A stretch of 64,000 nt of DNA from an uncultured Bacteroides sp. (lineage in GTDB: Bacteria; Bacteroidota; Bacteroidia; Bacteroidales; Bacteroidaceae): positions 21,451 through 85,450 of the forward strand of contig CALULL010000004.1 of the NCBI GenBank assembly GCA_944321465.1, in the 5' to 3' direction. The first letter of the stretch is position 1, and each line of letters opens with the position of its first letter. A model generated the notes under the pieces. The model made no database searches, was not told the DNA's origin, and worked only from the letters and a program-made list of their open reading frames with translations. Made by a program: the position numbers and the translations under genes. Positions 21,657-37,924 of this stretch are shown piece after piece.

Positions 21657-24600
21657 TCATTGCACCGCCACCTTGACCGCCGTCGTGCGCCCGTCGGCCA
21701 TCGTCGCGCGGACAACAGCCACGCCCGAGGGCAGTCCGTCGAAGCGGCACACCGAAGCATCGGCCGACGGCTCGGAGCCGTCAAGCAGCAACCCGCCCAC
21801 CGAGTAGACTTGCACGGTCCGCAAAGGCACGTCGGCCGACACAATGACTTCGCCGCGACGGACGGAGTAGGCCGTCAGCCGTGCCTCGTCCCCGCCCTGC
21901 TCGTCGCCGATGCCCGTAGCCGTCGAGCCGTCGGAGCGCAGGAAGTAGCGGCCGTGCGAGGCTCCTGCCAGCGTCAGCGTGTAGCCTTCGGCAAGGGGGG
22001 TCTCCGTGCCTGCGACGGCATCGTAGAGGCGCGGGTTGCGCAGAGCCGACACGCCGGTGAAGGTGAGCAGGGTCCGCGCCTCCTCGGCTGCAAACAGCCC
22101 AAAGGGCACTTGCCGCTGGCCGTGCAGGCGGTTGACGCTTGCCGCCACGTCGCCCGCCACGGTGTAGACCACGGGGGCGGCAGTGCCGTCGCCCGTCAGG
22201 TCGGCTATGAGCTGGGCGTCTTCCTCCGCACGATAGCCGTCGGTGGCTGCGTAGGCATAGGCCAAGGCCGCACGGCTGCGCCCGGAGGCGTTCTCGGCGG
22301 TGACGACGAGGCTGTTGGTGCCGGTCGTCCCGCCCGTGGCCGTGCCGAAGGTCTGCATGTCGGCGGTGAAGCTGACGGTGTTGCCGGTCGCGCCCTCCGC
22401 CTTCTCCACGAAGAAGGCACCGTAGGGCGGGATGGTGGCACCCTCTATGGTTTCTATCCAATGGCTTTCATCGTCAGCAGAGCCTACGGCAGGGCCGTCC
22501 TTGGTCTCTGTCCAGTACTTCGGCTGCAAATGCGTATTTCCATCAAAGAACTTCTGCAAGTCGAGCGGAGCCATGAAGGGGTTGCCCACGATGAGGTACT
22601 TGCCGTCCTGCGAGGGGGTAAGCTCGGCGGTGACGCTTTCCTTTGGGCTGTAGACAAGCGGATTGCTGCGGTCCAGCAGATCAGTCACCAGCAGTTTTCC
22701 GGCACCCTCTCGATTCAGCGTGCCCGTACTTACGTCGTACTTTGTATCGGCCTTCGGCAGGCGGAACTGCAAGGAGTTCCCGCTGCCTGCAGCTGCCGTC
22801 TTGATGGAGAAGCCGCCGCCGGGCACATAGGGCACACGGGCATCGTTGAAGACGGAGCTCCACGCGGCACTGAAGTGAGCGGGGGCTGTCTGTCCGCCCT
22901 GCTCTACGATTGTGGCCGACTGGTCCCAGCTGCGCTGGTAGACGGCGGGGTTGAGGCGGTCGTTCTCATCATTAAAGGTAATGTCCCTGAAGTAGGGCTC
23001 GTTGGCCTGCGTCCCCTTGGTGGTGGTGTACCAGTCGCCTGCCACCACGCCCTGCAGCGGGGTGCTTATCAACGTCCACTGCTTTGCCGGTACCGGCACG
23101 TCCGTCCACGCCCGGTTGTAAATCAGCTGCTCGGCGTGGAGCAACTGTGCGCCGGGCATGAAGTGGATGTCGCGGCAGATGTTCACGCGGTAGCGTTGGG
23201 TGGTGAGTTGGTTGTTCTGCTCGTAGACCATGAGGTCGTACTGTATGTTCTCCGTCGGGTCGCCCATACCCTCGGGACGGTTGTCCGAACCGGACCAGGC
23301 AGCACCGCCCTGGGCATATCCGCCGCCCTGGGCATATCCGGCCATGTAGAGTTGTGCACGGCTGTCGGCGGGCATCACGACGTTGGAGAACAGCATGGGC
23401 ACGAAGCCCTTCGTGTTGGCGTTGATGCCACCGTCGGTCACGTGGTCGCGCACCTCAGCGTCCGTCGGCGTATAGTGCAGCTCGCTGCCCGACAGGCGTT
23501 GCCAGTGGTCGTCGTTGTTCCAGTTGTCCTGCGCGGTGCCCGTCCACTTCAGGTACTCGGGGACGACCTTCATGCGGACGTTGAACGAGCCGTAGCACGA
23601 GTTGTACACCTCGTCCTCCGCCGCGCCCTTCTCCTCGAAGTGCACGGAGAACGTGTAGGTATAGCCCTCCTTGGGGGCAAACTGGAAGCCATTGGCCTGC
23701 TTGGAGAGGTCGAAGCGGAGCGTCATGTAGTCGTTATACGACGGCCCCTGCCCATACACCTCGGCACGAAGTTCCTCAATTTGTCCGATGGGCAAGCTGT
23801 ACTCGTTGAAGTCCGTGCCCGTGAAATAGTCCGAATAAGCCGGGTCGTCCGAGTCCACCAGATAGAGCATGTCCATGCCCTCCGAGGTTTCTATCTTGCC
23901 CAAATGAGTGGCTCCGTCGGTGATGATCACCGCTCCCCTTAAATCCATTCTTAGAGCAGTTCCGTTGCCGCCGACAGCAGTCTCCCGTATCTGCTTCAGG
24001 CCGATGCGGAGGGCGGGGTTGAAGTCGACTGCCGGATACGTCACCGTGTTGAAGCCCGGGTGGAGCTGCGGAGCATCGCCGCTGACGGAGAGCAGCACGG
24101 GGATGTAGTTCCAGCAGATTTGCGCCCACTGATCTTTGCTGATGCCCGAGCCTTCGGGCGGCACGAGCGTCTGAATGGGCTGGATGACGAGTTGCAGGCC
24201 GGTGTTGAGCAAGGTGATGTCCAGGTTCTCGCGATGGAGCACGAGGCGCCTGTGCATACCGCCCGTCACCACGGGCGAGGTGACATAACGCTCTATCAAG
24301 TTTAACTCCTCCTGGCTAAACACGACATCATCTTCTTCCTTCGGAAGCGTTGTCGCGTCCAGCTCGGTAGCATCGGGATAGAAGTGCCGGAAGTCGAGGA
24401 GCGCGGCCTGCAAGGATGTCTTGGCGGTCGGGTCGACGGCAAGAAACTCCTCCTTCGTGCCGAAGAACCAGTCGAAGTACACGCCTTCGTCCAGCACGTC
24501 GTAGGTGTCGTTGCCCTCGTCGTCCACACCCGTCGGCACCCGCAGCTGGGCCGAGAAGTTGAACACCTGCCCGGCACAGAAGGTCTGCGAGGGGTCTATC

Positions 24601-27600
24601 ACCTCGCCGTTCACCTTGATTACGGCCTCGGACTCCACGTAGAAGCGGGTCTGGATGCTACAGGCATCTCCCATCTGGGTGGCGAAGTAGTCAAGCAAGT
24701 CGGTATCTGACATGCCTCCATCTCCATCCTCCGGGGTGGCCGGGATAATGAGCATGATGTAAGGACGGTTGGGCGACAGCACCGAGTAGAAGTCCACAGT
24801 GAGCCGTCGGCCTGCGGCCTCGTCCTCCGAGCCTGTGCGGTAGAAGTAGGGCTTGCCGTCCTTCATGTGCTGGTAGGCAAAGAAGTAGTCGCCCTGGTCC
24901 ACGTCGTCTTCCTCATGCCCGGGGAACGTGCTGGTTCCTACGGGGTCGTTGTCCTCAAAGCGGTTCATGAAGTACATCGACATTATCCTTGTATTGATGA
25001 CCTCGCCGTCGCCAATCTCTACGATGGAATGGTCTATCGCCTCGGCTATGCTGCCCGGATGAGAGGCCAGATAGTTATTGTAGTCCGTCTCATCAATAAA
25101 GCAAAAGCTGAAACCGTTCTCCCCCGTGCCGCCTTCGCCGCCGAGACGCGACATAAGACGCTCCCAGTCCATCTCGATGTTCATGCGTGTACGCTCGTTG
25201 GTACAAGAGTATTCTTTCTGGGTGACGGCAGCACTGGGACGGCCTATGAAGACTTTGATGTCGTCCACGTAGATGTCACCACCCTTGGTAGAGGCCGAGT
25301 TGTTCTCTATCTGGAGCACATAGGAGGTGAAGTTGGCCGCCTCGTCGCTGTTGTTCATAAAAGAGAAGTACACCTGATACCACTGGTTGGTGTTTCTTCC
25401 CGTACCCGGGTCGCCAGCCTCAAGCTGGTCTGTGCGTCGTATCTGGCTGCTGGAGTGGCGGTAAAGGGGCGTATAGCTCCCGTCCTCATTCACGCCCATT
25501 ATGGTGAACAACACGGCAGCATCGTCGCCGGAACTCGAACTCTTAAGCCACGCCGTGACAAACAACTCAGACCCCCTACAGAGCTGTTCGTTGAAAGGAA
25601 GCCGGGCGATGATGCCCGGGCGGTCGGATGTATCTATGTAAAGGAAGTGCCCGTCGGGGTCCTTGCCAAGGCCCGAAGGAGGATCTGGAACTTCATTCAT
25701 ATACTCCGAATAACCGATGTAGGCATTCGCGATGGCGTAGTATCCCCACTCCACATACGTCGACACGCCTATTATGAAATCGCCGCTCTGCGAGCCATCG
25801 AAGAAAGCATAACTGCTGTGCTCCCACTCCATAGGGAACGGGAAATAAGCACGCTGGTAGCCTGCACCTCCGTATATGTCGGCCACCGTCGGGTCGTAGT
25901 TGAAGGTCAAGGCCGTGAGCGAGTCCAGGTTCTCGCGCATCCAAGCCGGAGAACGGTAGGTATAGTTCCAGTCGCGCCCCGTAGCCGCCGCAGTGCCCAG
26001 CTGTGCTACCTGGCTCTGCGTCAGCGGGACGGTGTTGTCCTCGAAGGTGAGGTTAAAGCGGGCTATGTTGTACGTCTTTTCCCTGTTATATTCATCACGC
26101 ACCTTCTTCGTTACCAGAATGGTGGCGGTGCTTCCGTCCTCTACCTCCCAAGATGTTTGTGCACCGCTCCGTTGCCGACGGAACTGAATGATGCGGTTCG
26201 CCCCACTAAGGTCGTTCGTCACGAGCGAGATGCCCGCGTTGTTGTCCGCCAGCGAGACAGTCAGCCCGCTGTTCTCATCCACGTCGGGAATGGCGTAGCT
26301 ATGCGCGTCCTTCGACAGTGCTACCAGTTCGTCGGTATAATTGGACAAGTGCTTGCTGGGGAAGGTGATGTCGTACTCTTCCAAGTACTTCCCGCTTGTG
26401 CCGCCTCCCTGATACTCTGATGTAGACAGCCGTCCGTGGCCGTTACGCCAATTCTCTGCCTTGTCCGGCGAGGAACTGTTGTCGCGGTCGTCCACACCCA
26501 CGATATAGAAGATGACGCGCACCGTCAGCGTAGGCTCGTAATAGCCGTTGTTGCGGAAACGAGCTACCCAATCGTCCCGATTAGTAATAGGATCACGCCC
26601 CGGATAGTCCGCCGTGAAGTCCGTGTAGCCGGACACGTCGCAGGCCACCACGTACCAATCGTTGTCCAGGTCGGGGTTGCCCGCCGCCTGCGGGAACCAT
26701 TCTTCGAACTCTGTGTCCGTGGGATAATAGAAGTTCATGGCCTGCACCACATCAGCGGACAGGGGTCGTCCTACATATCCGTTGGCAAACCTATAGGCAG
26801 TCCCGCTGATGGGAGTTAGCAAGTCCCACACGTTGTTTGCCCCCGTCTCGTTCGTGCGGAAAGTTCCGTCCGTTCGGTAGCTGTACCAACGCTGATAGGT
26901 CTGCACACTCGACGTTCCCCCGTTTCCCGACTGGCTTTTTGTAGGCAAAGCCAAGTCGATACTCTTCCCCTTGTGCATATAGATGGTGTCTATGTACGTG
27001 TGTGCCGCCTGTATGCCTTCGGTAGCCGAGGAGGAGATGGGGTCGAACCGGGGGCGGTCGTAGCTGAACGTGCCAAGGCTGCGTACAGGCAGGTTCAACT
27101 GCTCACGAAGGTCGAACCACTTGGGATCCTTATGCCGGATGACGGGGTCGTTACTTTCTGCCGCGAAGAAGTAGAGTTCGTTGATGAGAAGAGGACGATA
27201 ACCGAGGGCAGCTTTTCGAAAAGTAAGGCGCACATACGGAGCCGAAACTGGTTCGGAAAGTGTCACCGTGGCTACATTGTCATTATAAGTAAGGTCATAC
27301 TCGTCCCCTACTTGTTTAAATCCCGAGTTTTCATTATCACTTATCGATATTCTTATATGAGTCGGTCCACTTTGGGTAGACACAATCTGTATCCGTCCCA
27401 ACTCGGCATTGCTCAACGTATAAGTATCGTAAGGTAAACCTCGACTATTTTGCTCTGCATAGGTAGTCTCATTACCGTCTGTCATGCGGCTTGCATTATT
27501 AAATAAGCTCGAATGCCCCGGCCGCTCCAACTGGAGTGGAGTGTAGTTGGCACTGCCACTTTCCGTTGTATATCGGTTTCCCTCTACCCTATCCTGTCCC

Positions 27601-27695
27601 CACGCCCCCTGCACGGTGGCCACAGTCAGGGCCAGCAGGAGCAAGAGGGAGGAGGCGTGGCGGGCGAGGCGGTGGTGTATGCGTGTTGCTTTCAT
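21657..27695 (-). CDS. giant (2012 aa) secreted pilus-operon protein: Sec signal peptide, discoidin/CBM32-like N-terminal domain, ~1700 aa I could not assign by eye, T9SS type-A C-terminal sorting domain
   Basis: The ORF is intact. Signal peptide ...LLLLLALTVATVQGAWGQ with no lipobox. aa ~60-175 carry TDGNETTY...INELYFF, resembling F5/8 type C. The last ~75 aa, RLTAYSVRRGEVIVSADVPLRTVQVYSVGGLLL...LPSGVAVVRATMADGRTTAVKVAVQ, fit the T9SS CTD pattern. It starts 14 nt downstream of the preceding pilin gene. Confidence 0.85.
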   Translation of the reverse strand: MKATRIHHRLARHASSLLLLLALTVATVQGAWGQDRVEGNRYTTESGSANYTPLQLERPGHSSLFNNASRMTDGNETTYAEQNSRGLPYDTYTLSNAELGRIQIVSTQSGPTHIRISISDNENSGFKQVGDEYDLTYNDNVATVTLSEPVSAPYVRLTFRKAALGYRPLLINELYFFAAESNDPVIRHKDPKWFDLREQLNLPVRSLGTFSYDRPRFDPISSSATEGIQAAHTYIDTIYMHKGKSIDLALPTKSQSGNGGTSSVQTYQRWYSYRTDGTFRTNETGANNVWDLLTPISGTAYRFANGYVGRPLSADVVQAMNFYYPTDTEFEEWFPQAAGNPDLDNDWYVVACDVSGYTDFTADYPGRDPITNRDDWVARFRNNGYYEPTLTVRVIFYIVGVDDRDNSSSPDKAENWRNGHGRLSTSEYQGGGTSGKYLEEYDITFPSKHLSNYTDELVALSKDAHSYAIPDVDENSGLTVSLADNNAGISLVTNDLSGANRIIQFRRQRSGAQTSWEVEDGSTATILVTKKVRDEYNREKTYNIARFNLTFEDNTVPLTQSQVAQLGTAAATGRDWNYTYRSPAWMRENLDSLTALTFNYDPTVADIYGGAGYQRAYFPFPMEWEHSSYAFFDGSQSGDFIIGVSTYVEWGYYAIANAYIGYSEYMNEVPDPPSGLGKDPDGHFLYIDTSDRPGIIARLPFNEQLCRGSELFVTAWLKSSSSGDDAAVLFTIMGVNEDGSYTPLYRHSSSQIRRTDQLEAGDPGTGRNTNQWYQVYFSFMNNSDEAANFTSYVLQIENNSASTKGGDIYVDDIKVFIGRPSAAVTQKEYSCTNERTRMNIEMDWERLMSRLGGEGGTGENGFSFCFIDETDYNNYLASHPGSIAEAIDHSIVEIGDGEVINTRIMSMYFMNRFEDNDPVGTSTFPGHEEDDVDQGDYFFAYQHMKDGKPYFYRTGSEDEAAGRRLTVDFYSVLSPNRPYIMLIIPATPEDGDGGMSDTDLLDYFATQMGDACSIQTRFYVESEAVIKVNGEVIDPSQTFCAGQVFNFSAQLRVPTGVDDEGNDTYDVLDEGVYFDWFFGTKEEFLAVDPTAKTSLQAALLDFRHFYPDATELDATTLPKEEDDVVFSQEELNLIERYVTSPVVTGGMHRRLVLHRENLDITLLNTGLQLVIQPIQTLVPPEGSGISKDQWAQICWNYIPVLLSVSGDAPQLHPGFNTVTYPAVDFNPALRIGLKQIRETAVGGNGTALRMDLRGAVIITDGATHLGKIETSEGMDMLYLVDSDDPAYSDYFTGTDFNEYSLPIGQIEELRAEVYGQGPSYNDYMTLRFDLSKQANGFQFAPKEGYTYTFSVHFEEKGAAEDEVYNSCYGSFNVRMKVVPEYLKWTGTAQDNWNNDDHWQRLSGSELHYTPTDAEVRDHVTDGGINANTKGFVPMLFSNVVMPADSRAQLYMAGYAQGGGYAQGGAAWSGSDNRPEGMGDPTENIQYDLMVYEQNNQLTTQRYRVNICRDIHFMPGAQLLHAEQLIYNRAWTDVPVPAKQWTLISTPLQGVVAGDWYTTTKGTQANEPYFRDITFNDENDRLNPAVYQRSWDQSATIVEQGGQTAPAHFSAAWSSVFNDARVPYVPGGGFSIKTAAAGSGNSLQFRLPKADTKYDVSTGTLNREGAGKLLVTDLLDRSNPLVYSPKESVTAELTPSQDGKYLIVGNPFMAPLDLQKFFDGNTHLQPKYWTETKDGPAVGSADDESHWIETIEGATIPPYGAFFVEKAEGATGNTVSFTADMQTFGTATGGTTGTNSLVVTAENASGRSRAALAYAYAATDGYRAEEDAQLIADLTGDGTAAPVVYTVAGDVAASVNRLHGQRQVPFGLFAAEEARTLLTFTGVSALRNPRLYDAVAGTETPLAEGYTLTLAGASHGRYFLRSDGSTATGIGDEQGGDEARLTAYSVRRGEVIVSADVPLRTVQVYSVGGLLLDGSEPSADASVCRFDGLPSGVAVVRATMADGRTTAVKVAVQ
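23305..23340 (-). repeat. in-frame 18-bp tandem duplication inside the giant gene (encodes GGYAQG x2)
   Basis: CCGCCCTGGGCATATC occurs at 23305 and again at 23323. The protein reads ...YAQGGGYAQGGAAW... Confidence 0.8.
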
Positions 27696-27709
27696 TGTCT
27701 GTTTCCTCC

Positions 27710-29122
27710 TTATTTATATGAATACATGTTGAGCACTTCCACGTCGAGCCAACGGGAAGAGGCTGCGCGCGTGGTGACGGGGTCTTGGAACTCGACATCG
27801 GTGATGTCCGTGGTGACGACCCGCAGCGTGTAGGTGCGGTTGTAGGACTGGCCGTCGTCCGTCCACGTGGCCTGCGCCGTGAGGGGGATTTCCTGTCCGG
27901 CACTGGCGGTGACGTGGCCTGCGACGGTGGTGCTGCCGGGCGTGTAGCCGTCGAAGTCAAGGCCACGGACGGCAGACGGGTCGAAGCTCCAGGTGCAGGC
28001 CATGTCGGCGGGCTGCTCCGTGGCGGTCTCGCCGGTGTAAACGCCGTCGATGTCGAACTGGAACTGTGCACCCTCGGGCAGCTTCACTTCGTAGGTATTC
28101 GGGTCAAGGGTAGCCACTACCGGCACAGGGTAGGAGCCGATGGGGCTGACCCAGCACTGCACACGGATGTCCAGCCCGTAGTCGTCCAGCGTCAGCACCA
28201 GCGGGTAGATGCTGTTGCGGGGCAGGTCGTGTCGCGCGGTAGTGGCGGTGTAGGTGGTGCCGCCACGGTTGCTGGTCGTCACGCTGACGGCGAAAGGCGC
28301 TGCGTGGGCCACCGTCTCGTTGACGTAGAACTCCAGGCCGCCTGTGGCGGCAACCTCGGCTTGAGAGAACGTCCGCTCCCCGTCGCAGGTCACATCGGCG
28401 GGCGCGGCATTGGCAGAGAGCAACGCCACGCGGTCGGCCCAGCCACTGAAGGTCAAGCCGGTGGCCGACGAGGCACTTGCCCCCTGCAGCGAGATGCGCA
28501 CCTTGCTCACCAGCCTGTCCAGACCGATGGAGATGCCCGTGGTGGCGGGGGTGACGGTGACCGTCAGGGGGACGGCACTCATGGGGATGAAGTGGCGGCT
28601 GCCGTTGCCGTCGGCATCATTGAAGTCTATCTTCGCGGCGGGGTCGTCGAGGACGATGCTCGCCAGCGAAGGCAACGTCTCGTCCTTCTCTATACCTATT
28701 ACTATATTATATAGCTCCGTGCTATACGTCGCGTCGATGTTGGCGAAGGCGTAGAAGGTGTAGGTGCCGGGGGCGAGGGTGAGCGGCTGGCTGTAGGTGC
28801 GCAGGTTGCCCTCCTGGGCGGCGGCGTTCGTGCTGAGGTCGGGAGCAATCTTCTCGACCACGGTGCCTGCGTCGTCCACGATGAAGACGCAGAGCGAGTG
28901 CATGAACTCGTGCGTCGTGCCCGGCTCCTCGCCCACGGGGTCGGGGTCGTCGCCCGGTGCACGGGTGTTCAGGTCGCCGGCCTCGCGGGTGGTGATGCGC
29001 AGCTGCATCTCGGCGGGCTGTCCCGGCAGGGGCAGCCCCTCCAGCCCGTCGGAGGGCGAGCAGCCCCCGAGGCAACCCGCCAGCAGGGCGGTGCGTAATG
29101 CGTGTTTCAAGAATGTCTTCAT
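27710..29122 (-). CDS. fimbrillin-like lipoprotein (type V pilus accessory/tip subunit candidate)
   Basis: Lipobox LLAGC/LGGC. A prodomain ends in ...DLNTR|APGDD ~35 aa after the Cys. An FimA-superfamily-like N-terminus (LCVFIVDDAGTVV...GTYTFYAFANID). Confidence 0.6.
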   Translation of the reverse strand: MKTFLKHALRTALLAGCLGGCSPSDGLEGLPLPGQPAEMQLRITTREAGDLNTRAPGDDPDPVGEEPGTTHEFMHSLCVFIVDDAGTVVEKIAPDLSTNAAAQEGNLRTYSQPLTLAPGTYTFYAFANIDATYSTELYNIVIGIEKDETLPSLASIVLDDPAAKIDFNDADGNGSRHFIPMSAVPLTVTVTPATTGISIGLDRLVSKVRISLQGASASSATGLTFSGWADRVALLSANAAPADVTCDGERTFSQAEVAATGGLEFYVNETVAHAAPFAVSVTTSNRGGTTYTATTARHDLPRNSIYPLVLTLDDYGLDIRVQCWVSPIGSYPVPVVATLDPNTYEVKLPEGAQFQFDIDGVYTGETATEQPADMACTWSFDPSAVRGLDFDGYTPGSTTVAGHVTASAGQEIPLTAQATWTDDGQSYNRTYTLRVVTTDITDVEFQDPVTTRAASSRWLDVEVLNMYSYK

Positions 29123-29177
29123 ATCTTGTCTATGGTACTCTTAGCTATTATCGTTCCTCACGGCACTGCCTGCGGGG

Positions 29178-29262
29178 GCGCAGGTGTGCTCCCTTGCGGG
29201 CAGACCTGTACCCCGGCGGGGGCAGACCTGTGCGCCCACGGGGGCAGACCTGCGGTCCGCCC
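29178..29262. repeat. GC-rich array inside the pilus operon: one REP-like unit plus three GGGCAGACCTG units on a 22-nt period
   Basis: GCGCAGGTGTGCTCCCTTGCGGGCAG at 29178-29203. GGGCAGACCTG at 29198, 29220 and 29242. Confidence 0.65.
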
Positions 29263-29279
29263 GGCGGCACAGGCGCGGC

Positions 29280-30974: not shown

Positions 30975-31239
30975 CTCTTCTTGTATCTTAATGTTTACAT
31001 CTATTCGTTTCCTTTGTTGTCTGCCTCCCCTCGGTCCTAACGGGGCTCCGGGGAGCGAGGCGGCGAAGCCGTCCAACTATGCTTAGCCCCGGGCGAACGG
31101 AGCGGACCCGGGGTCCTTATGCAACCCCTCCTCGCATCGGCCCCGTCCAAGAGGGCGGATGGCACAAGGCGGCGCAAGGGCCGTACCTAATACCTCGTCA
31201 ACTCATGCCTAACCACTCGTTAACTAACCCCCACGTCGG

Positions 31240-32355
31240 CTACAGATCGGCAAACTGCACCCTGACGCTCCACTCCAGCACACTGATGCGGATGTTGGCA
31301 TAGGCCAGGCGACCGCCCTTCAGGAAGAAGTCGAGCTGGTAGTCGTAACCACGGTCGAGGAACTCCTGCGGCGAGTAGCTGTAGGCCGACTCGCTGGTGC
31401 GCAGGCGGCTGAGCAGGTCGGGCAGGTTGATGCGTATGACCTCCTGCCCCGTCTCGCGGCTCGTCACCGAGAGAATGGCGTCGTCCGCCGGGTCGTCGTG
31501 GTAGATGATGCGCGAGGTCATAAAGTCGGCATGGGCTATGCGGCCCACTTGCACCTGCGTCTCCCCGTCGGCACGGCTGTCGGCGGTGCGGTCGGTCGTG
31601 TTCCAGGTGGCGTGGGGGGTGTAGACCACGGTGCCTGCCGACTCGTCCACCGTGTTGTCCCACAGCAGGTGGGCGTTGCGGTCGGTGATGCGCATGTCGA
31701 ACTGTGCCACGTCGGTAGTCCACGGCTCGTCGATGTCGCGCAGCGTGACGTTTATCTTCTTCGTGTCGCGCACCAGCGGGATGGTGGCGTAGGTGGGTTT
31801 CTCGGTGAAGACCTCCACCGGCTCTACGTGCAGGCCGTGCCACAGGGTGTCGAGCGGCTCGCCGCCGTGGGGCACAAGGAGGGTGCCGGTGCCGTCGTCG
31901 CGGGTGTCAAGACGTATGTCGAGCGTCTGCATGTCGTCGCCGGGGATGAGCTGCGAGCGCACGAAGTGGGCGCGCCGGGTGGACAGCTGGCTGTCGTAGT
32001 CGGTCTGCCCGGCCAGCACGACAAACTGGTAGCGACCGGGCTGCAGGTCCATGTGCATGGCGTAGCCGGGCTGCGCCAGCGGGCGGTCGTCGCCAACGTT
32101 GGCCTCGCTCTGGCAGGTGACGTAGCGTCCCTGTTCGTCGAAGACGTAGACATCGACCGCGCCCACGTGGTCGGCAAACATGTCGGCACGCTCCAGGTTG
32201 TAGTCGTACTCAAAGCTCAGGTAGAGGCCGAAGGGGCAGTCGCTACGGTCATCGTGCATCATGTCGCACGAGGCGAGCACTGCCGCAGCCGCCACAGTGG
32301 CTACTGCCCGGCCAAGGCGCGGGCATAGGCGGCCACGCGTGGCGTTGTGTTTCAT
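31240..32355 (-). CDS. FimB/Mfa2-family fimbrial anchor/terminator subunit
   Basis: Lipobox VLASC, then DDRSDCPFGLYLSFEYDYNLERADMFADHVGAVDVYVFDEQGRYV, the pattern I recall for Mfa2-family proteins. It sits directly after the Mfa1-like gene. ATG at 32355. Confidence 0.65.
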   Translation of the reverse strand: MKHNATRGRLCPRLGRAVATVAAAAVLASCDMMHDDRSDCPFGLYLSFEYDYNLERADMFADHVGAVDVYVFDEQGRYVTCQSEANVGDDRPLAQPGYAMHMDLQPGRYQFVVLAGQTDYDSQLSTRRAHFVRSQLIPGDDMQTLDIRLDTRDDGTGTLLVPHGGEPLDTLWHGLHVEPVEVFTEKPTYATIPLVRDTKKINVTLRDIDEPWTTDVAQFDMRITDRNAHLLWDNTVDESAGTVVYTPHATWNTTDRTADSRADGETQVQVGRIAHADFMTSRIIYHDDPADDAILSVTSRETGQEVIRINLPDLLSRLRTSESAYSYSPQEFLDRGYDYQLDFFLKGGRLAYANIRISVLEWSVRVQFADL

Positions 32356-32507
32356 CGTTGCCTGCATAGGTGTTCCCATATATAAGTTTACGTTATGTTC
32401 TGTCTCGTTCTCTATGTCGTTTGTCCGGCATCCCCGGACGGGGGGCAGGGTGCACGCCCTGCTATGGTGTTACCGACACGGATTGCGGCGCAAGTTTCTC
32501 CCCCTTG

Positions 32508-32650
32508 CTGCCGAAGCTCGCTCCAGCGGCTGGAGCAGACTTCGGCAGCTGGCTGGAGCGAGCTTCTCCAGCCGCTGGAGCGAGCTTCGGCAGCAGGCGG
32601 GAGAAAGCTTCGGCAGCAGGCGGGGGCGAAATGCGGCAGCAGGCGGTTGT
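32508..32650. repeat. palindrome and tandem-repeat cluster in the Mfa1-Mfa2 spacer
   Basis: The 20-bp CTGCCGAAGCTCGCTCCAGC (32508-32527) has its exact reverse complement at 32574-32593. An imperfect hairpin partner lies at 32529-48. Three direct copies of (CTT)CGGCAGCAGGCGG start near 32585, 32608 and 32632. Confidence 0.75.
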
Positions 32651-33032
32651 CCGCCCCTGTCCGTGGCCGTCCCCTGTGTGCCATTGGACCCCTTCGGGGC
32701 TGCCGGTCCGGCGAGGTTCATGCCTACGTCAGCGTGCGACTGTTGCCTGATGCATCGTCAACTCATCAACTGACGCCTGATGCCTGACGCCTCGTCAGCT
32801 AATGCCTAACAACCTCCGTGCGGTATCTGTTTCATCATGTCAAAGAGGGAACGGGGGAGGGAGGGGGCGGCAGCTTGCGCCGACGCGCCCCTGCCCTGTG
32901 CTGTTCCCGTGTGTTGGTTCCTCGCCCCTGTCTTTGCGCCGGGCGTGGCTGCGCTCCCGCTCTTGGTGTTGTCCCCCGGCGGGATTGGGGGAAAGTCCAA
33001 TGAAGATTTTAATTAATGCCTAAGCTGTCGCT

Positions 33033-33100
33033 GTAGGGGCGGGGCTGCGCCCGCCCTGTGGTTGGCAGGACGGGTGCCCGTGCCCTGGGGTCGCCCCTAC
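33033..33100 (-). terminator. long GC-rich hairpin 14 nt downstream of the Mfa1-like stop (candidate attenuator/terminator)
   Basis: GTAGGGGCG (33033-33041) pairs with CGCCCCTAC (33092-33100). The intervening 50 nt is itself GC-rich and self-complementary. Confidence 0.45.
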
Positions 33101-33113
33101 GCGGTACGTGCGG

Positions 33114-35000
33114 TTAGAGGTCTACGTCCTGCGTGCGAACTGCCCAAGAGAGGATGTTGATTTCGACAGATATCCAAGACTCAACAGGGTCGTCAGGACC
33201 GTACTCGGGTTCAACGTCGGCAGAGCCAATGCTGCTGATGGACTTGACGTTGACGGTGTACCAGTTGTTGCGCAGCACGCCGTAACGTCCCAGCCAGTTG
33301 TTAGCACCGCTGGAGTCGGGGTACGAGGATATATCGCTGGCATCGTCCGTGTCCCAAGGAGTAGCGTCGTCGCCGAAGTGCTTTATCATAACCGGATAGT
33401 AGGCCACGCCACCCTTGTAGTAGGAAATCTTGTAGGCAGCGTTGATGTCATTCGTAACAGTCTGGTTGTTCGAGGCCAAAGCAACAGGAATGGTAGAGTT
33501 CTCGAAGTTGTCGGCAGCATCTGCACTCACGTGGACAGTAGCCACCGTCACTGTACCACCCTCCAAGTTGCCAAGGTCTTCGTCTGCATCATCCGTGCCA
33601 TGCTTGTAGGTGACAACAAGGTCTTCTCCGCCGATGCTTCCAGTCGAAGTCAGACCACCCTCTCCGTGCAGAGCAGCCTGTACTACAGCGTTGTCCAAAT
33701 AGGCCTGCTTAACGACGTTCTCGATGTCCGCTTTCTTGTAGAAAGTGCTCTTGACGTTGTTCAGAACGTAGAAGTCGCCGTTGCCCTCACCAGCATAACC
33801 TACCGAGAGTTTTACAGCCACGATGACACGTGTGGTCTGGTCTTTCATCATGTTGGCGGTGTTGAAGGTGTTCTCAAGGCAGTACATGGGATTGGTCGCA
33901 CCGGTCTGAGTCAACGTCGTGGGGGCGGTACCAACTACCGAGAAGAACTCTGTGCTGGCATTTACATTACCAGTTGTGCCATCGGTGTAGCCCGTGCCGT
34001 CGTAGTTCGGGTCAATGCCCCAGTACGTGCGATACAAGCCGGGGTCTACGGCAGCCGCGCCTACAAAGCGGTAGTGGTCGCCTGTGGATGCCGTATTGTA
34101 GTAGGACCACCAGCCGGCACCATTCACGTTGCGCACGGGGAAGGTCTTCTGGTTCGTAATGTCGAGCGTCCAGCCAGCGATGTCGTTCACGGTTACGCCC
34201 GTTGGCATACCGCTGTCATCCAAGGAAGCATCCTCTGTCACCGTCACCTTGGCCACGGCACGTTCCACGTAGATGTCGGCAGCAGGGTTGTCCTCAGCCA
34301 TAGACTCCGAGTCGAAGATGTTGTTGGGGTCTATCACGGACAGTACCCGGGCCGTAGCAGTCGCAGCGGGCTGAGTCTGCCCACCGGGAGCGGTATAGAG
34401 GGGCGCGTTGAGCATCAGGAAGTTTCCGCTTCCGCTACGGGAAGCCATGCCAGCAATCTGCTCCTTTGTAAGAGTGAGTGCAGCGTTGAACTGGGCAAAG
34501 GTCGTCGTGCCGCTTGTCAGCGTGGTGTTGCCAATCTTCCAAGTCGTTGCGTTCCCGGCTGTTTCGGAAGTCAATATGCCGCTGCCGTTAATCACCGCCA
34601 AGGCGTAGATGTTCTGGCCTGCGGTCGTGGTGGGGCGCACGATGGGGGCCGTATAGCTGTACTTCGAAGTGATGTTGTCATCCTCGGGGTTGTAGTCCGC
34701 CTGCGTTCCGGCCAAGGCGTATGCACCGTTGAAGATTGAGTTCTGCTCGTTAGCACCCACGAAGATGAGCAACGTGGCTTCGTTCACCTTATATTCCACT
34801 GCGTCGCCGTCGTCGAAGTCGTCGTTGGCCGCACGCGTCGAAGGCTGTGTAGGCAGGTTGATGGCCAGGCTGACATAGCCGGTCTCGCCTGCGCCCACTC
34901 CGCCCTGGGGTTGTCCGTTGTTCACCCCGAGGTCGTCGGAACAAGCTCCCAGCACCAGTGCTGCCAGTGCGAGGGAGAAGAATTGTCTCTTTGTTTTCAT
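33114..35000 (-). CDS. mfa1: Mfa1-family fimbria major (stalk) subunit
   Basis: Lipobox LVLGAC and prodomain ending ...QPSTR|AANDD. The C-terminus VLRNNWYTVNVKSISSIG...WISVEINILSWAVRTQDVDL closely parallels P. gingivalis Mfa1 (VVRNNIYHIHIKSIKKLG...MSVEVTVLPWKVHSYEVDL). Confidence 0.85.
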   Translation of the reverse strand: MKTKRQFFSLALAALVLGACSDDLGVNNGQPQGGVGAGETGYVSLAINLPTQPSTRAANDDFDDGDAVEYKVNEATLLIFVGANEQNSIFNGAYALAGTQADYNPEDDNITSKYSYTAPIVRPTTTAGQNIYALAVINGSGILTSETAGNATTWKIGNTTLTSGTTTFAQFNAALTLTKEQIAGMASRSGSGNFLMLNAPLYTAPGGQTQPAATATARVLSVIDPNNIFDSESMAEDNPAADIYVERAVAKVTVTEDASLDDSGMPTGVTVNDIAGWTLDITNQKTFPVRNVNGAGWWSYYNTASTGDHYRFVGAAAVDPGLYRTYWGIDPNYDGTGYTDGTTGNVNASTEFFSVVGTAPTTLTQTGATNPMYCLENTFNTANMMKDQTTRVIVAVKLSVGYAGEGNGDFYVLNNVKSTFYKKADIENVVKQAYLDNAVVQAALHGEGGLTSTGSIGGEDLVVTYKHGTDDADEDLGNLEGGTVTVATVHVSADAADNFENSTIPVALASNNQTVTNDINAAYKISYYKGGVAYYPVMIKHFGDDATPWDTDDASDISSYPDSSGANNWLGRYGVLRNNWYTVNVKSISSIGSADVEPEYGPDDPVESWISVEINILSWAVRTQDVDL

Positions 35001-35044
35001 ACGTTCACTAAGTTTTTGTTATTGGTACATTATGTATAGATAGT

Positions 35045-36514
35045 TCAGTCTGTATCTGTCTCGCTGTGGCGGTCGTCGGCGGGGGCGGTGGTGGCGGGGC
35101 CTTCGATGAGGCGCAGGTTGTCGCCCGCCTCTCGGCAGCCGGCCTCCTGGGCCTGGCGCATGAGGCGGCAGCCGCCGTCGGTGTCGCCGCGCAGCACGAG
35201 CAGCACGCCCCGGGCGTGGTCGGCCTGGGGCGAACGGCCCGCACGGCGCAGGAAGTGCTCGGCACCCTCGTAGTCGCCCACCTCCATGCGGGCACAGGCG
35301 GCGTTGAGGTTGGCCGTGGGGTCGTCGGGGAACATGCGCACGGCCGTCTCCATCACCTCGTTGAAGCGGGGCGTGCCCGGCTCGTAGGTCTGCGCCAGGG
35401 CGTACATCTCTTCGAGGGAGAGCTGCTGGGGCTTGGTGCGGATTATCTCGCGGGCCTCGTCGACGGTGAAGGGACGCACGTAGTAGCGCACCACGTAGTC
35501 GGAGTGGCGCAGGGCGGGATACCACGTCTGCAGCATGAAGCGGTAGTCGTCGGGGTAGCGGTCGCGTATGCGGTGTTCCTTCACGTCGGGGTCGAGCGTG
35601 GCGTCGTCTATCAGGGCCAGTATGGCCTCGCGGTTGTCCAGGTTGCTGCCGTCCACGTAGCGGCGCAGTCCCTCCCAGTCCTCGGGGGTAGAGGAGACGC
35701 GGAAGGTGGTGTCGGGCAGGGCCACCATGCGGCGCACGTAGTCCGTCAGGGTGCGTGCGCGGTTCTCGGCCAGGTAGGTGTTGTGGCGGTAGGTGTCCTC
35801 GGGCGAGGCGTAGCCGTGTATCTCCACGCGGTAGATGGTGGCGTTGGTGTCGTTCTTCACCACGTTGATGGAGTTGACTATTTTTGCCAGCTCGGTGGGG
35901 TTGGCGCGGTAGTCGGGGTAGAGGGTTATCTTGTCCACGGGGAAGTCAATGAAGGCTTGCCCGTCGTAGTGGCGCTCCTTGGGTCCCTCGACCGCAGGGC
36001 GCACATAGGGCATACGGGGACGGCGCAGGCGGCGCAAGGGGGTGACGGCCTGATCCAGCACGTCGCCGCAGCCGCAGAGGTCTTCCTCGATGGCCACGTC
36101 GCAGTTCTTCATCCACGGCTCGTAGGGCAGCACGGCACTGTAGTGCACGGTCTGCCGCGTGCCGTTGCGGCGGTAGACGGCCAGTGCGTCGGGCCCGTAG
36201 TCGTTGTGGGCGAAGCGTTTGTAGGAGATGGACTGCTTGCGCCCGTTGAGCACGATGGGGGGCATCAGGCGGGTGTAGCCGTCGCCGCCCGAGACGGTGG
36301 GCGTGAACACCATGCGGCGGTTGGCCCGCAGGTGGAGGGAGTCGAGGCAGAGGTCCATGTCGAGCACCAGGGTGCGGTCGGTAGGCTCCACCTTGAGGTT
36401 GCGCACGGCGATGGTGCTGTCGGCCAGCATGGGCACCGCCGTCTGCGCGTCCAGCCCGGCGGGCAGCAGTGCTGCGGCGCAGAGAAGCAATATGGGTATT
36501 GTCGTCTTGGTCAT
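35045..36514 (-). CDS. DUF3868 domain protein with a TPR-like C-terminal region
   Basis: Signal peptide, then VRNLKVEPTDRTLVLDMDLCLDSLHLRANRRMVFTPTV.., typical of DUF3868. A central OmpA-like segment (VEIHGYASPEDTYRHNTYLAENRARTL). It holds the canonical position between DUF3575 and the pilin gene. Confidence 0.75.
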   Translation of the reverse strand: MTKTTIPILLLCAAALLPAGLDAQTAVPMLADSTIAVRNLKVEPTDRTLVLDMDLCLDSLHLRANRRMVFTPTVSGGDGYTRLMPPIVLNGRKQSISYKRFAHNDYGPDALAVYRRNGTRQTVHYSAVLPYEPWMKNCDVAIEEDLCGCGDVLDQAVTPLRRLRRPRMPYVRPAVEGPKERHYDGQAFIDFPVDKITLYPDYRANPTELAKIVNSINVVKNDTNATIYRVEIHGYASPEDTYRHNTYLAENRARTLTDYVRRMVALPDTTFRVSSTPEDWEGLRRYVDGSNLDNREAILALIDDATLDPDVKEHRIRDRYPDDYRFMLQTWYPALRHSDYVVRYYVRPFTVDEAREIIRTKPQQLSLEEMYALAQTYEPGTPRFNEVMETAVRMFPDDPTANLNAACARMEVGDYEGAEHFLRRAGRSPQADHARGVLLVLRGDTDGGCRLMRQAQEAGCREAGDNLRLIEGPATTAPADDRHSETDTD

Positions 36515-36563
36515 GGTTCTATGGGATTTGTGTATGTATCGCTTTTAGTGTGTCGGTGCGGAG

Positions 36564-37157
36564 CTAAAACACATAGATGAGGCTCAACGCAGCCTTGGTA
36601 GGCCCGAGGTAATTGCTGTGGTCGGACTTGAGCCGCTCGCCACAGTCGCCGCAGACGAACTTGTCGTACTTTATGTAGTCGTAGCCCAGGCCCAGCGAAG
36701 CCTCGAAGTTCCAGTGACGGGCCAGCATCCACTGGTAGCCCACGGTGATGCCGCCCCCGGCGTACCAGCCCTCGTAGCGGTGCTGCCGCAGGCCGTCGAG
36801 GATGCCCAGGGGGAGGTCCACCCCGGAGGCGTTGAACTCGCCCCCCATGAGGTGTGCGCCGAGAAACCAGCCGTTGAAACTCTCGCAGAACCAGTAGCGG
36901 TACTCGGGCTGCAAGGCCCAGTGGCGCAGGCTCTTGCCCGAGGGCGACCGCCAAGGGTTCAGCCCGTAGAACAGCTGCACGCTGTGCTTGCGGGCAAAGG
37001 AGACTTCCAGCCCCAGGTTGGGGGTGGTGGTGGCCCAGTAGAGCACGTTGGTCTTGAGCGCCACGTTTTGCGCCGAGGCCGTGGCACAGACACCCGCCAG
37101 GCCAAAGAGGGCAAGCAGCGCGACACGTCTTACCCGTCTGAAGTGTTCTGTCTTCAT
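36564..37157 (-). CDS. DUF3575 domain outer-membrane protein
   Basis: Signal peptide MKTEHFRRVRRVALLALFGLAGVCATASAQ, then NVALKTNVLYWATTTPNLGLEVSFARKHSVQLFYGLNPW. ATG at 37157 chosen inside track ORF 36564..37397. Confidence 0.8.
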   Translation of the reverse strand: MKTEHFRRVRRVALLALFGLAGVCATASAQNVALKTNVLYWATTTPNLGLEVSFARKHSVQLFYGLNPWRSPSGKSLRHWALQPEYRYWFCESFNGWFLGAHLMGGEFNASGVDLPLGILDGLRQHRYEGWYAGGGITVGYQWMLARHWNFEASLGLGYDYIKYDKFVCGDCGERLKSDHSNYLGPTKAALSLIYVF

Positions 37158-37544
37158 AAACGAATGCATTAGTGTATAGACTATTATAACCATCCTGACA
37201 TGCCCGACGCAAAAGGCCAACGCTGTTGGCACGGGACGCGGCAATGCTTCGCCTTCCATCGCCGCCCGTCCGCATCCTGCCTCGGACGCCATACAACGAA
37301 AACAGCCGCCCGCCGTCCGTCCCCGGAACGCCCGCCCGACACAAGCCACACAAGCCTCCAAGCCGCTGCCGCACGGCCTCTGTCTTCGTATTGCCACGAT
37401 TGCTCTATTGACTATCCTGCGTTTCTTCTTCCTTCATTGGCCGCCAAGGCTGCATCCTGCGCCCGGCAACCGGACCCTTATTCTGTTTCTTACTCACCAA
37501 AGAAACACCTGTCCTATAATAGCAATCTTTCATTTCCCGATAGC

Positions 37545-37746: not shown

Positions 37747-37800
37747 AGTCATAGGGAAAAGGCACAATTGACAAGAGCCTAAGACTTTACCAAACCCCAC

Positions 37801-37821
37801 TACATCTCTTACCAAGAGAGC
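37801..37821. repeat. third, partial copy of the switch inverted repeat (same orientation as the right arm)
   Basis: TACATCTCTTACCAAGAGAGC matches the reverse complement of the left-arm region 37543-37563 over 21/21 nt. Confidence 0.7.
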
Positions 37822-37924
37822 CATTATTCCGACATTCCTCTCCCCTACTCTTCGAGACGGCATTTCCACCACTTCCACACTTCCAAAGCCACACGAGCAA
37901 CCTGGCGCACTTCTGCCCGCCTGG

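Follow-up and report, generated by a model that had tools for sequence, protein, structure and literature searches.

How a T9SS-secreted protein enters a type V pilus built from lipoproteins is a question that has so far been studied in P. gingivalis. It is raised anew by a locus in the window analysed here (the whole stretch of 64,000 nucleotides from an uncultured Bacteroides sp.), in which a row of pilin genes ends in a gene for a giant protein. The locus is a seven-gene, phase-variable Bacteroidales type V pilus operon and represents an uncharacterised variant of a known system; it extends known machinery and is no new machine type. Taken as a whole, it is best explained as the phase-variable operon for an Mfa-type (type V) pilus in a Prevotella-like, uncultured gut Bacteroidales, a reading that we consider probable. 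New here are the very large family to which the giant protein belongs, its swappable heads and an invertible promoter found in both orientations.

A first-pass annotation had proposed that two leader genes, four pilin-type genes and a gene for a T9SS cargo protein follow each other on one strand, and this outline held. All seven ORFs (g1 to g7) are present on the minus strand where it had placed them (Table 1), and the mfa1-to-mfa5 layout of the operon is supported. Unrelated genes bound the locus: one for a DEAD-box helicase lies downstream, and those for a metallophosphatase and SHMT lie on the upstream side.

Table 1. Features of the pilus locus and of its upstream region, with positions in the window.
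Feature	Position	Strand	Evidence or remark
Invertible promoter region (inverton)	37540..37824	.	inverted repeats; both orientations in assemblies
Inverton repeat copies (~19-26 nt), n=3	37540-37570, 37721-37746, 37801-37824		
Bacteroidetes-type promoter consensus TTTG-N21-TACCTTTG	37684..37716	+	inside invertible segment
g1, DUF3575 protein, 197 aa	36564..37157	-	PF12099, E 2.9e-75
g2, DUF3868 protein, 489 aa	35045..36514	-	PF12984, 31.7 bits (cut-off 27)
g3, Mfa1-family stalk pilin, 628 aa	33114..35000	-	NF038041, 213 bits (cut-off 130)
Structured intergenic region after g3	32380..33113	-	fold energies
g4, Mfa2-family anchor / elongation terminator, 371 aa from third Met	31240..32355	-	PF08842, E 2.7e-52
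g5, second Mfa1-family pilin, 564 aa	29280..30974	-	NF038041, 178.7 bits
g6, fimbrillin-like lipoprotein, 470 aa	27710..29122	-	PF08842 (Mfa2), 26.8 bits (cut-off 21.2)
g7, Mfa5-family protein, 2012 aa	21657..27695	-	ORF; homologues; synteny
g7 CBM32 / F5-8 type C lectin domain, residues ~60-180	27156..27518	-	hypervariable head
g7 region homologous to Mfa5 common C-terminal region, residues ~1373-1935	21891..23579	-	
g7 T9SS type A C-terminal sorting domain (CTD), residues ~1940-2012 (~73 residues)	21660..21878	-	

The first gene, g1, encodes a protein with a signal peptide and a weak match to the autotransporter beta-domain, which is probably a small outer-membrane beta-barrel, and the DUF3575 gene is kept as the first operon gene in 10 related loci. 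The g2 product shows sub-threshold similarity to OmpA (E 9e-4) and TPR proteins (E 2e-3), and its gene is syntenic across related loci. Both leader proteins may have a role of some kind in pilus assembly.

Among the pilins, g3 contains Fimbrillin_C (E 3e-30) and matches the type V pilin 4jrf and the Mfa1 C-terminal domain protein 9y6o among PDB sequences, and the PF08842 match of g4 spans profile positions 2-276 of 277. Fimbrillin_C was also identified in g5 (E 1e-13), together with a weak match to the tip adhesin FimD, while g6 shows weak matches to FimA and Mfa1. The previously suggested lipoprotein route of these proteins is borne out by lipobox cysteines, read straight from the translations without a predictor, in g3 (VLGAC), g4 (VLASC), g5 (AFAAC) and g6 (LLAGC/LGGC). 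Furthermore, candidate Arg maturation sites follow the first predicted strand in g3 (PSTR/A), g5 (GTR/A) and g6 (NTR/A). Judged from their place in the operon, g5, which takes the Mfa3 position, would be an accessory or adaptor pilin, and g6, which takes the Mfa4 position, an accessory pilin; as g5 does not match the solved Mfa3 or Mfa4 at the sequence level and g6 has no match among PDB sequences, including solved Mfa3/Mfa4, position alone assigns them these putative tip roles.

An identical gene order was seen in 12 loci of Prevotella, Parabacteroides and further Bacteroidales. In four more partial loci, pilin genes lie directly upstream of the giant (g7-type) gene, and one additional locus with a giant gene was reached via a Parabacteroides-derived search. 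The synteny comparison that had been recommended with the original annotation came out in its favour: g7 homologues lie directly behind pilin genes, and not away from pilin operons, in 16 of 17 informative loci, and homologues from different genera, with 33-54% identity, strictly keep this place behind the accessory pilins. Like the mfa1-mfa5 operon of P. gingivalis, the locus encodes, in the same order, a stalk, an Mfa2 anchor, two accessory lipoprotein pilins and a Sec-exported protein with a T9SS CTD, the pilins share the lipoprotein route and the (here candidate) Arg maturation sites, and the last protein carries the ~600-residue Mfa5 common region followed by the CTD. Unlike that operon, it contains two extra conserved leader genes (DUF3575 and DUF3868) before the pilins, accessory proteins g5 and g6 without detectable sequence similarity to Mfa3/Mfa4 and an invertible promoter upstream, and its host is a high-GC gut Bacteroidales. 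The last proteins also differ in length (2012 aa in g7, ~1227 aa in Mfa5) and in their heads, which consist of CBM32 and a large unknown core in g7 and of vWA and isopeptide IgG domains in Mfa5.

The g7 gene starts 14 nt past the g6 stop codon on the same strand. Several properties that the first-pass annotation had attributed to its product were upheld, namely the occupation of the Mfa5 slot directly downstream of the accessory pilin genes, a classical signal peptide, the absence of vWA and a lectin-like N-terminus. The signal peptide is of Sec type and ends in AWG/Q, and g7 has no lipobox. No VWA family of Pfam or NCBIfam matched g7 at E<=0.01, and no vWA structure was present among its Foldseek matches. 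The F5/8 type C (CBM32) domain is real, with a Pfam score of 28.8 bits for the fragment against a cut-off of 28.2, a sequence match to PDB 4a42 (E 4e-4) and Foldseek matches to 4a42 (TM 0.72) and 7blg (TM 0.68). In addition to CBM32, structure matches indicate a MAM-like jelly roll in the head; confidence in the AF2 models is medium (pLDDT 74 and 78). No PDB sequence match was found outside CBM32, and no pilin-like domain was recognised in family searches or by Foldseek on the models. In relatives with 92-100% identity across residues 1000-2012, identity in the CBM32 stretch is 33-49%; other relatives have this stretch deleted, and longer family members carry CBM26 heads. The N-terminal heads of the family are swappable, being CBM32, CBM26 or none. 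As close relatives differ by exchange or loss of head CBMs, the g7 head is likely to bind glycans, from host mucin or dietary polysaccharide.

The presence of a T9SS CTD, as annotated, stood in part. A T9SS-type CTD is supported through orthologues, the family profile and the AlphaFold model only; the tail itself yielded no CTD HMM hit, which by the annotation's own yardstick formally counts against it, because the available models are silent for this copy: neither PF18962/TIGR04183 nor any other NCBIfam model matched the isolated g7 tail even at E<=10. Tails of g7 orthologues give sub-threshold matches to PF18962 (E 8e-4 to 0.09), and distant family members, which end in canonical GxYxV...KxxVK tails, reach E 3e-5 and 24.6 bits (cut-off 27). 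The top four PDB sequence matches of the g7 tail profile are all T9SS cargo CTDs at extreme C-termini, belonging to RemZ (4e-4), RemA (3.5e-3), Endo-HS (4e-3) and 8glk_D (0.013), a 75-residue Endonuclease I chain of a T9SS entry. In the AF2 model, residues 1940-2011 form a seven-strand beta-sandwich, for which Foldseek retrieved 8gl8_D (prob 1.0, TM 0.78, rmsd 2.2 A) and 8gl6_D (TM 0.79), the structural matches being RemZ/RemA CTDs. The Flavobacterium johnsoniae proteins RemA and RemZ and the Aureispira protein GhpA resemble g7 as long beta-sandwich chains ending in a type A CTD; the RemA and RemZ CTDs are the best structural matches of the g7 tail, and GhpA fragments are the top matches of the g7 stalk, with low TM. 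These proteins have no homology to g7 outside the CTD, and we know of none that has been reported with a type V pilus operon. Among the ORFs of the 64 kb window that were screened, none matched a T9SS component. The genera carrying g7 homologues include Prevotella and Parabacteroides, and experiments on Prevotella intermedia and Parabacteroides distasonis have shown T9SS CTD processing (PMC4560394). From its tail, g7 is predicted to depend on T9SS.

Profile comparison further shows that residues ~1373-2012 of g7 (~640 residues) share homology with the common region that is conserved at the C-terminal end of Mfa5 in P. gingivalis. This part of g7 contains W-G..NWNND..NW, VYQRSW and LVGNPFMA motifs and a beta-sandwich before the CTD. 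Alignment of the C-terminal profile of the giant family with an Mfa5 profile of 79 sequences by hhalign gave 99.4% and E 3e-21 over 585 columns, and the giant-family HMM scored 44.9 and 41.9 bits on P. gingivalis Mfa5-1 and Mfa5-2, compared with <=4.6 bits for 200 shuffles. The sequences used were the genuine mfa5-1 and mfa5-2, whose C-termini equal the published CTD strings exactly (PMC8313007). Pairwise BLASTP of g7 against Mfa5 found nothing, and the homology appears with profiles only. More than 1600 full-length homologues of g7 were found, relatives of its C-terminal 1012 residues form at least 1165 clusters at 50% identity, and 110 homologues were detected for the Mfa5 common region. The earlier proposal of a distinct adhesin class therefore holds in part only, given that the ~640 C-terminal residues are homologous to Mfa5.

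P. gingivalis Mfa5 joins one conserved C-terminal half to unrelated heads, and in mfa5 genotypes D and E, vWA is absent; genotype E (6615 bp, 2204 aa) stands in tandem behind a vWA-type mfa5 (PMC8313007). Since genotypes D/E have been published without vWA, a precedent exists for a large T9SS protein that fills the Mfa5 slot and does without this domain, although to our knowledge it is uncharacterised. [quoted passage not shown] The tandem second copy of genotype E is also reminiscent of tandem copies in the related loci L015 and L018. The genotype E head is matched neither by the giant-family HMM nor by BLASTP, and whereas genotype E is known from genome comparison alone, the g7 family is far larger and has recognisable CBMs.

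Two other readings of g7 turn on its C-terminal end. Its tail could be a mere Ig-like domain and g7 no T9SS substrate, reaching the surface by another route or remaining periplasmic, as the below-threshold scores of the curated CTD HMMs on this copy would allow; the exclusive T9SS cargo tails among the four best matches of the tail profile, all at extreme C-termini, the structural matches (TM 0.78-0.79) and the GxYxV...KxxVK tails and near-threshold PF18962 matches of distant members make this extremely improbable. It is very unlikely, too, that g7 is, in line with the first-pass reading, a separate adhesin class that replaced Mfa5 and shares with it a generic T9SS tail only. The absence of vWA, of BLASTP similarity to Mfa5 and of any PDB sequence match except CBM32 would agree with such a class, as would the mismatch between the heads of g7 and genotype E, but the profile homology persists without the CTD (E 1.7e-12) and without the last 175 residues, comprising the CTD and the preceding domain (E 6.2e-6), and the joining of unrelated heads to one conserved C-terminal half is already seen in P. 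gingivalis Mfa5 (PMC8313007). A separate class with a generic T9SS tail alone is largely refuted by hhalign without the CTD.

Alternatively, g7 could be a surface adhesin secreted by T9SS, co-transcribed with the pilus genes but working beside the pilus, outside the filament and attached to anionic LPS (A-LPS) after CTD removal. In fold and motifs, the type A CTD resembles that of cargo for which A-LPS is the normal anchor (PMC4560394), g7 showed no recognisable pilin-like domain, and the mode in which Mfa5 joins the pilus is still unknown (PMC8512630). We nevertheless regard this as unlikely, given the strict synteny of g7 behind the accessory pilins across genera at 33-54% identity, its homology to the Mfa5 region kept by all genotypes, and the finding that immunogold labelling places Mfa5 at the tip of the fimbriae, with which it also co-purifies (PMC7835359, PMC8512630).

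With g7 as a component of the pilus, assembly can be envisaged by analogy with P. gingivalis. In the ON state, the four lipoproteins would be exported via the Sec and lipoprotein routes; g3 would polymerise into the stalk once its N-terminal strand is cut off at the conserved Arg, g4 would remain lipidated as anchor and terminator, and g5 and g6 would serve as accessory or tip pilins. A different route, via Sec to the periplasm, would be taken by g7. For Mfa5, CTD- and PorU-dependent export, location at the tip and a requirement for accessory pilin incorporation have been described (PMC8512630, PMC7835359), and a tip location is suggested for g7 by this analogy. The ~560-residue region before the CTD, which is common to Mfa5, would be the likeliest coupler of g7 to the accessory pilins at the tip, and the N-terminal ~1370 residues would project outward as an adhesive head made of CBM32, a large conserved core of unknown fold, the MAM-like jelly roll and Ig-like sandwiches.

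Upstream of g1, at a distance of about 400-650 bp, lies an invertible segment of ~240 bp, with the outer repeat pair bracketing the flipping segment. The repeats comprise a perfect 26-nt inverted repeat and a 24-nt inverted repeat (96%); their sequence, TCTCTTGGTAAGAGATGTA, is specific to this locus and occurs in three copies, compared with 0.01 expected by chance, so that two alternative inversions are possible. The promoter consensus TTTG-N21-TACCTTTG occurs just twice when both strands of the window are counted (0.3 expected). In this window the motif is directed away from the operon, which corresponds to the OFF orientation, and in loci L027, L029 and L032 it is directed toward the DUF3575 gene. 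Eight assemblies of the same locus were compared, and the segment is inverted relative to the window in three (ON) and matches it in four (OFF), metagenome assemblies catching both orientations. The flanks are ~99% identical in direct orientation and a 275-nt block is identical (273/275) only as the reverse complement, and L027 and L028 differ by a clean inversion of the segment. The invertible segment would carry the operon promoter, OFF in this assembly and ON in others of the same species. No recombinase gene adjoins the inverton, whose neighbours encode the metallophosphatase and the DUF3575 protein, and none was identified among the screened window ORFs; the switch may be served in trans. 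Invertons of capsule and fimbrial operons in gut Bacteroidales likewise have short inverted repeats around a segment of ~150-240 bp with a TTTG / TAnnTTTG promoter inside, and both orientations coexist in natural populations. The inverton described here differs from them in its locus-specific repeat, its three repeat copies and the absence of an adjacent recombinase gene from the window.

The locus puts Mfa5 into a very large and diverse family. As one conserved C-terminal module is combined with unrelated heads, the shared ~600 residues are a candidate coupling module, and the g7 family offers many natural variants for testing this idea. It is possible, if doubtful, that the Mfa5 common region is a general coupler of T9SS cargo to pili, with interchangeable glycan-binding heads at the tips and DUF3575/DUF3868 as the assembly platform. 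If so, Prevotella, Parabacteroides and relatives would mount CBM32, CBM26 and other heads on pilus tips, forming a large phase-variable and recombining pilus-lectin repertoire for attachment to mucus or dietary particles, and the always-linked DUF3575 barrel and DUF3868 (OmpA-like/TPR) would constitute the outer-membrane platform that is missing from type V pilus models. The carbohydrate-binding heads suggest a glycan-adhesin role for pili of abundant gut Bacteroidales, and head swapping and ON/OFF inversion suggest strain-level and cell-level variation in adhesion targets, which is relevant to colonisation and to the choice of niches in Prevotella-rich microbiomes.

The operon also contains a long structured intergenic region after g3, with a hairpin directly past the stop codon and, at a greater distance, a stem of ~45 bp; the fold energies are -49.8 kcal/mol (z -3.0) and -139 kcal/mol (z -8.5). 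An Rfam search of this region matched no family, and the region may act as an attenuator or stabilise the mRNA. Related loci likewise have a gap of several hundred nt after the stalk-pilin gene.

All seven minus-strand genes of the type V (Mfa-type) pilus locus proposed in the first-pass annotation (g1 to g7) were present at their positions by ORF reading and curated HMMs, as listed in the table. Direct reading of the pilin translations shows lipobox cysteines and candidate Arg maturation sites, and the giant last product, g7, which occupies the Mfa5 position, carries an N-terminal Sec-type signal peptide that ends in AWG, before Q. The locus lies between a DEAD-box helicase gene and, at its other end, the genes for a metallophosphatase and SHMT, and no Rfam family was identified within it.

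Features of the pilus locus, its surroundings and selected loci from other genomes (L-numbers)
Feature	Sequence	Position	Strand	Remarks
g1	window	36564-37157	-	DUF3575, E 2.9e-75
g2	window	35045-36514	-	DUF3868, 31.7 bits; OmpA-like and TPR stretches sub-threshold
g3	window	33114-35000	-	Mfa1-family major pilin; NCBIfam 213 bits against a cut-off of 130; Fimbrillin_C
g4	window	31240-32355	-	Mfa2, E 2.7e-52
g5	window	29280-30974	-	second Mfa1-family pilin, 178.7 bits
g6	window	27710-29122	-	divergent fimbrillin; PF08842, 26.8 bits
g7	window	21657-27695	-	2012 aa; start 14 nt past g6
g7 residues 1-200	window	27095-27695		
g3-g4 gap	window	32380-33113		734 nt, non-coding
Invertible promoter region	window	37540-37824		three 19-26 nt repeat copies
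Promoter consensus	window	37684-37716	+	directed away from the operon in the window
Deiminase family gene	window	5048-6337	+	
BspA-type protein gene	window	12283-13503	-	
Thiamine biosynthesis cluster	window	47795-54797	+	
HU-HIG and AraC-family regulator genes	L022	4411-4824 and 1237-2145		
Inverted repeat	L009	3116-3343		
Four-repeat arrangement	L033	2014-2443		
Tandem giant genes	L015	534-9020 and 9424-13056		
Tandem giant genes	L018	2790-10723		

The mfa5 gene of P. gingivalis occurs as genotypes A to E, to all of which a homologous C-terminal half and a T9SS C-terminal sorting domain (CTD) are common (PMC8313007, PMC8512630). A vWA head is restricted to genotypes A to C, and genotypes D (4020 bp) and E (6615 bp, 2204 aa; in W83, the second of two tandem mfa5 copies) lack vWA and have N-terminal halves that cannot be annotated (PMC8313007, PMC8512630). 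BLASTP detected no similarity between g7 and either Mfa5-1 or Mfa5-2 of P. gingivalis, and a full-length profile of the giant family (g7 and its homologues) searched against PDB sequences retrieved CBM32 alone and no Mfa5, the solved Mfa5 fragment comprising the vWA half only. The mfa5-2 sequence and the C-terminal 840 residues of mfa5-1 were taken from a metagenome contig via the back-translated CTD motif, and their C-termini were identical to both published CTD strings. An HMM of 380 giant-family C-termini scored 44.9 and 41.9 bits on these two Mfa5 proteins, with 200 shuffles reaching at most 4.6 bits. The two-sequence Mfa5 template gave a signal in the CTD and the preceding domain only and no significant match farther upstream; because of this limit, a set of 110 sequences homologous to the Mfa5 common region (the C-terminal part kept by all genotypes) was assembled; the source annotation of several reads 'minor fimbrial subunit Mfa5' or 'T9SS type A sorting domain-containing protein'. 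Profile-profile comparison of the giant family with a 79-sequence Mfa5 profile yielded 99.4% probability and an E-value of 3e-21 over 585 columns, which changed to 1.7e-12 when the CTD was taken off both sides and to 6.2e-6 without the last 175 residues, the upstream part being significant with the 79-sequence profile only. The E-values with and without the CTD show that g7 residues ~1373-2012 are homologous to the Mfa5 common region. Collinear shared motifs include W-G..NW..NW, VYQRSW in g7 and MYRRSW in Mfa5, LVGNPFMA and LIGNSYTG, a pre-CTD sandwich and the CTD itself. From its sequence, g7 belongs to the Mfa5 family as a divergent member whose head differs; the full-length giant-family HMM did not match the head of genotype E, and the two heads are not detectably related.

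The T9SS CTD previously claimed for g7 is accepted as a type A CTD from four independent lines of evidence, although the curated CTD models were silent: PF18962 and the NCBIfam models did not match the isolated g7 tail even at E<=10, which formally triggers the refuting condition set in the first-pass annotation, and standard HMMs run on the tail and five other g7 segments returned no CTD, no VWA and CBM32 alone. Orthologue tails from related loci show sub-threshold PF18962 matches (E 8e-4 to 0.09) that lie at the extreme C-terminus and cover nearly the whole model, and more distant family members reach 22-25 bits. The best four matches of a 14-tail profile among all PDB sequences are all T9SS cargo tails (RemZ, RemA, an endo-beta-N-acetylglucosaminidase and the 75-residue Endonuclease I chain of a T9SS entry, 8glk_D), each aligned at the protein's own C-terminus. 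An AlphaFold2 model of g7 residues 1001-2012 (61-sequence alignment, pLDDT 74) ends in seven strands, and this modelled tail superposes on the RemZ and RemA CTDs of T9SS translocon complexes with a probability of 1.0, TM of 0.78-0.79 and rmsd of ~2 A. Furthermore, the usual GxYxV...KxxVK/R pattern is found in the C-termini of 140 cluster representatives. We infer that g7 depends on T9SS. CTD processing by this system has been shown in Prevotella intermedia and Parabacteroides distasonis (PMC4560394). No T9SS component was identified among the ORFs screened in the 64-kb window, of which the remainder have housekeeping functions, and neither the BspA-like LRR protein nor the DUF4468 protein of the window, inspected visually for a CTD that would hint indirectly at T9SS, has one.

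The lectin-like N-terminus and the absence of vWA noted in the first-pass annotation both held: an F5/8 type C (CBM32) domain is the sole direct family match, and no VWA was detected by HMM and no vWA fold in the model of the N-terminal half (pLDDT 78). In Foldseek searches this model gave compact matches to CBM32 modules (TM 0.65-0.72) and to MAM-type jelly rolls (meprin, PTP-mu), the latter attributed to a predicted second jelly-roll domain deeper in the head, and the C-terminal half was modelled as a chain of beta-sandwiches. The two half-length models otherwise matched mostly chains of Ig-like domains (GhpA, alpha-2-macroglobulin, complement) at low TM, which would mean no more than a 'string of beta-sandwiches'. 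Residues 1001-2012 matched at least 1165 clusters among 1.84 billion cluster representatives, 583 of them at E<=1e-30; total length ranges from ~630 to 3203 aa among the 150 clusters listed, the shortest being clear fragments, and in the apparently complete listed proteins the match sits at the C-terminal end. Close relatives of g7 (P0002, P0007, P0009, P0003-P0008) form an identity mosaic, with 92-100% identity over residues 1000-2012, mostly ~60-90% over residues 200-900, and residues 1-200 either 33-49% identical or deleted; in several, the CBM32 domain is wholly missing. This mosaic points to recombinational swapping of a putative lectin head. CBM26 starch-binding modules (E 6e-37) were identified in three of 19 long members (2300-3200 aa; P0265-P0379, alignment A5), F5/8 type C and DUF5013 in one each, and VWA in none of these or of seven mid-length members. 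The CBM26 modules suggest that in some lineages the heads are directed at dietary polysaccharide. Such variability would be expected if the head is distal, binds ligands and is under diversifying selection; glycans are its likely ligands.

More than 1600 full-length homologues of g7 were found, none with a name for the family in any source, and literature searches returned no papers that deal with it or that treat the DUF3575/DUF3868 pair as part of a pilus. Synteny was examined with tblastn, using the seven window proteins as queries, in 21 loci from GTDB species genomes of Prevotella, Parabacteroides, Muribaculaceae and other Bacteroidales. Within contig reach, the full seven-gene order is present in L003-L007, L014 and L020; L010 and L017 keep it, the stalk and anchor genes being ~2 kb further apart, and the Parabacteroides loci L009, L013 and L016 keep it with one pilin gene fewer. 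The partial loci L002, L012, L018 and L019 have g5/g6 homologues immediately upstream of the giant gene. Among loci with upstream sequence, a pilin match is absent only in L015, where that upstream sequence is part of a 2828-aa giant gene which a second copy follows. P0151, a homologue obtained via a Parabacteroides-derived search and also present on megabase-scale contigs, lies in the context AraC regulator, DUF3575, DUF3868, HU-like protein, Mfa1, Mfa2, pilin and giant gene. The linkage of g7 to pilins first read from a single locus is thus conserved across genera, at 33-54% identity. Tandem giant genes occur in L015 and L018, like the mfa5-1/mfa5-2 pair of P. gingivalis, and the 2828-aa copy has an extra N-terminal extension of ~1000 residues. 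In the P0151 operon (L022) the HU-like gene between the DUF3868 and stalk pilin genes is of the HU-HIG (DNA-binding) type, and AraC-family regulator genes lie on the flanks, which hints at additional lineage-specific regulation.

Upstream of g1, at a distance of ~400-650 bp, three copies of TCTCTTGGTAAGAGATGTA were identified, compared with 0.01 expected by chance. Two inverted repeats result, a perfect one of 26 nt whose arms are 150 nt apart and one of 24 nt whose arms are 237 nt apart. The Bacteroidetes promoter consensus TTTG-N18-22-TAnnTTTG has two matches in the whole window, one of which lies inside this segment; scans for sigma-70 promoters and intrinsic terminators are uninformative for this phylum. 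The exact g1 protein is encoded on at least 23 contigs from other metagenome assemblies. Of eight such loci fetched, four are arranged like the window. In three others the stretch bounded by the outer repeats is flipped, which turns the promoter towards g1, and the remaining one has a more complex layout with four repeats. When L027 is compared with L028, the flanks agree at ~99% identity in direct orientation, and a 275-nt block is identical at 273 of 275 positions only as the reverse complement. The two orientations provide direct evidence, at the population level, that the promoter is invertible, and the operon is OFF in the window. No recombinase gene adjoins the invertible segment. The four repeat copies of L033, from the same species, come with a spacing difference of ~170 bp upstream of DUF3575 and may represent a second state produced by inversion or duplication, or an assembly in which mixed orientations were joined into a chimera. 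In Parabacteroides, the DUF3575 gene of L009 is preceded, at a distance of 46 nt, by a 24-nt perfect inverted repeat with a 157-nt spacer and a partial third copy, which is alike in layout to that of the window but unrelated in sequence; the exact promoter consensus was not found inside it.

By analogy with P. gingivalis Mfa5, the best-supported reading is an Mfa-type pilus whose putative tip protein, g7, would be delivered by T9SS. Mfa5 of P. gingivalis is retained inside the cell when its CTD is deleted or porU is mutated, and the pili then lack accessory proteins (PMC8512630). The main rival, that g7 is a free-standing surface adhesin co-expressed with the pilus, appears rather improbable to us. 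The first-pass annotation had instead regarded g7 as a separate adhesin class, which is unlikely given the profile-profile homology to the Mfa5 common region that persists without the CTD. It is likewise unlikely that g7 is not a T9SS substrate, as its tail profile matches T9SS cargo tails in the PDB and its model superposes on the RemZ and RemA CTDs.

Operons of this type, the paradigm of a T9SS-dependent Mfa5, giant Mfa5 genotypes without vWA and invertons of Bacteroidales have all been described before. What is new is the placement, via a ~600-residue module, of a very large, nameless family of ~2000-aa gut Bacteroidales proteins in the Mfa5 family, together with its CBM-bearing, recombining heads and the ON/OFF switch documented at the g1-g7 locus.

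The gap between the stalk (g3) and anchor (g4) genes contains unusually stable hairpins (fold z-scores -3.0 and -8.5), including a strong hairpin directly past the stop codon and a ~45-bp perfect-stem palindrome, as well as short direct repeats CCGCCTGCTGCCGAAGC. By attenuating read-through, these hairpins may determine how much stalk is made relative to the minor subunits, and the gap may represent a candidate attenuator, RNA stabiliser or REP-like element. Elsewhere, the window encodes a BspA-type leucine-rich-repeat surface protein without a recognisable CTD and a member of the Porphyromonas-type peptidyl-arginine/agmatine deiminase family, both of which have no relation to the pilus locus, and a thiamine biosynthesis cluster comprising ThiG, ThiC, a radical-SAM/BATS protein (ThiH-like) and a ThiD-TMP synthase fusion.
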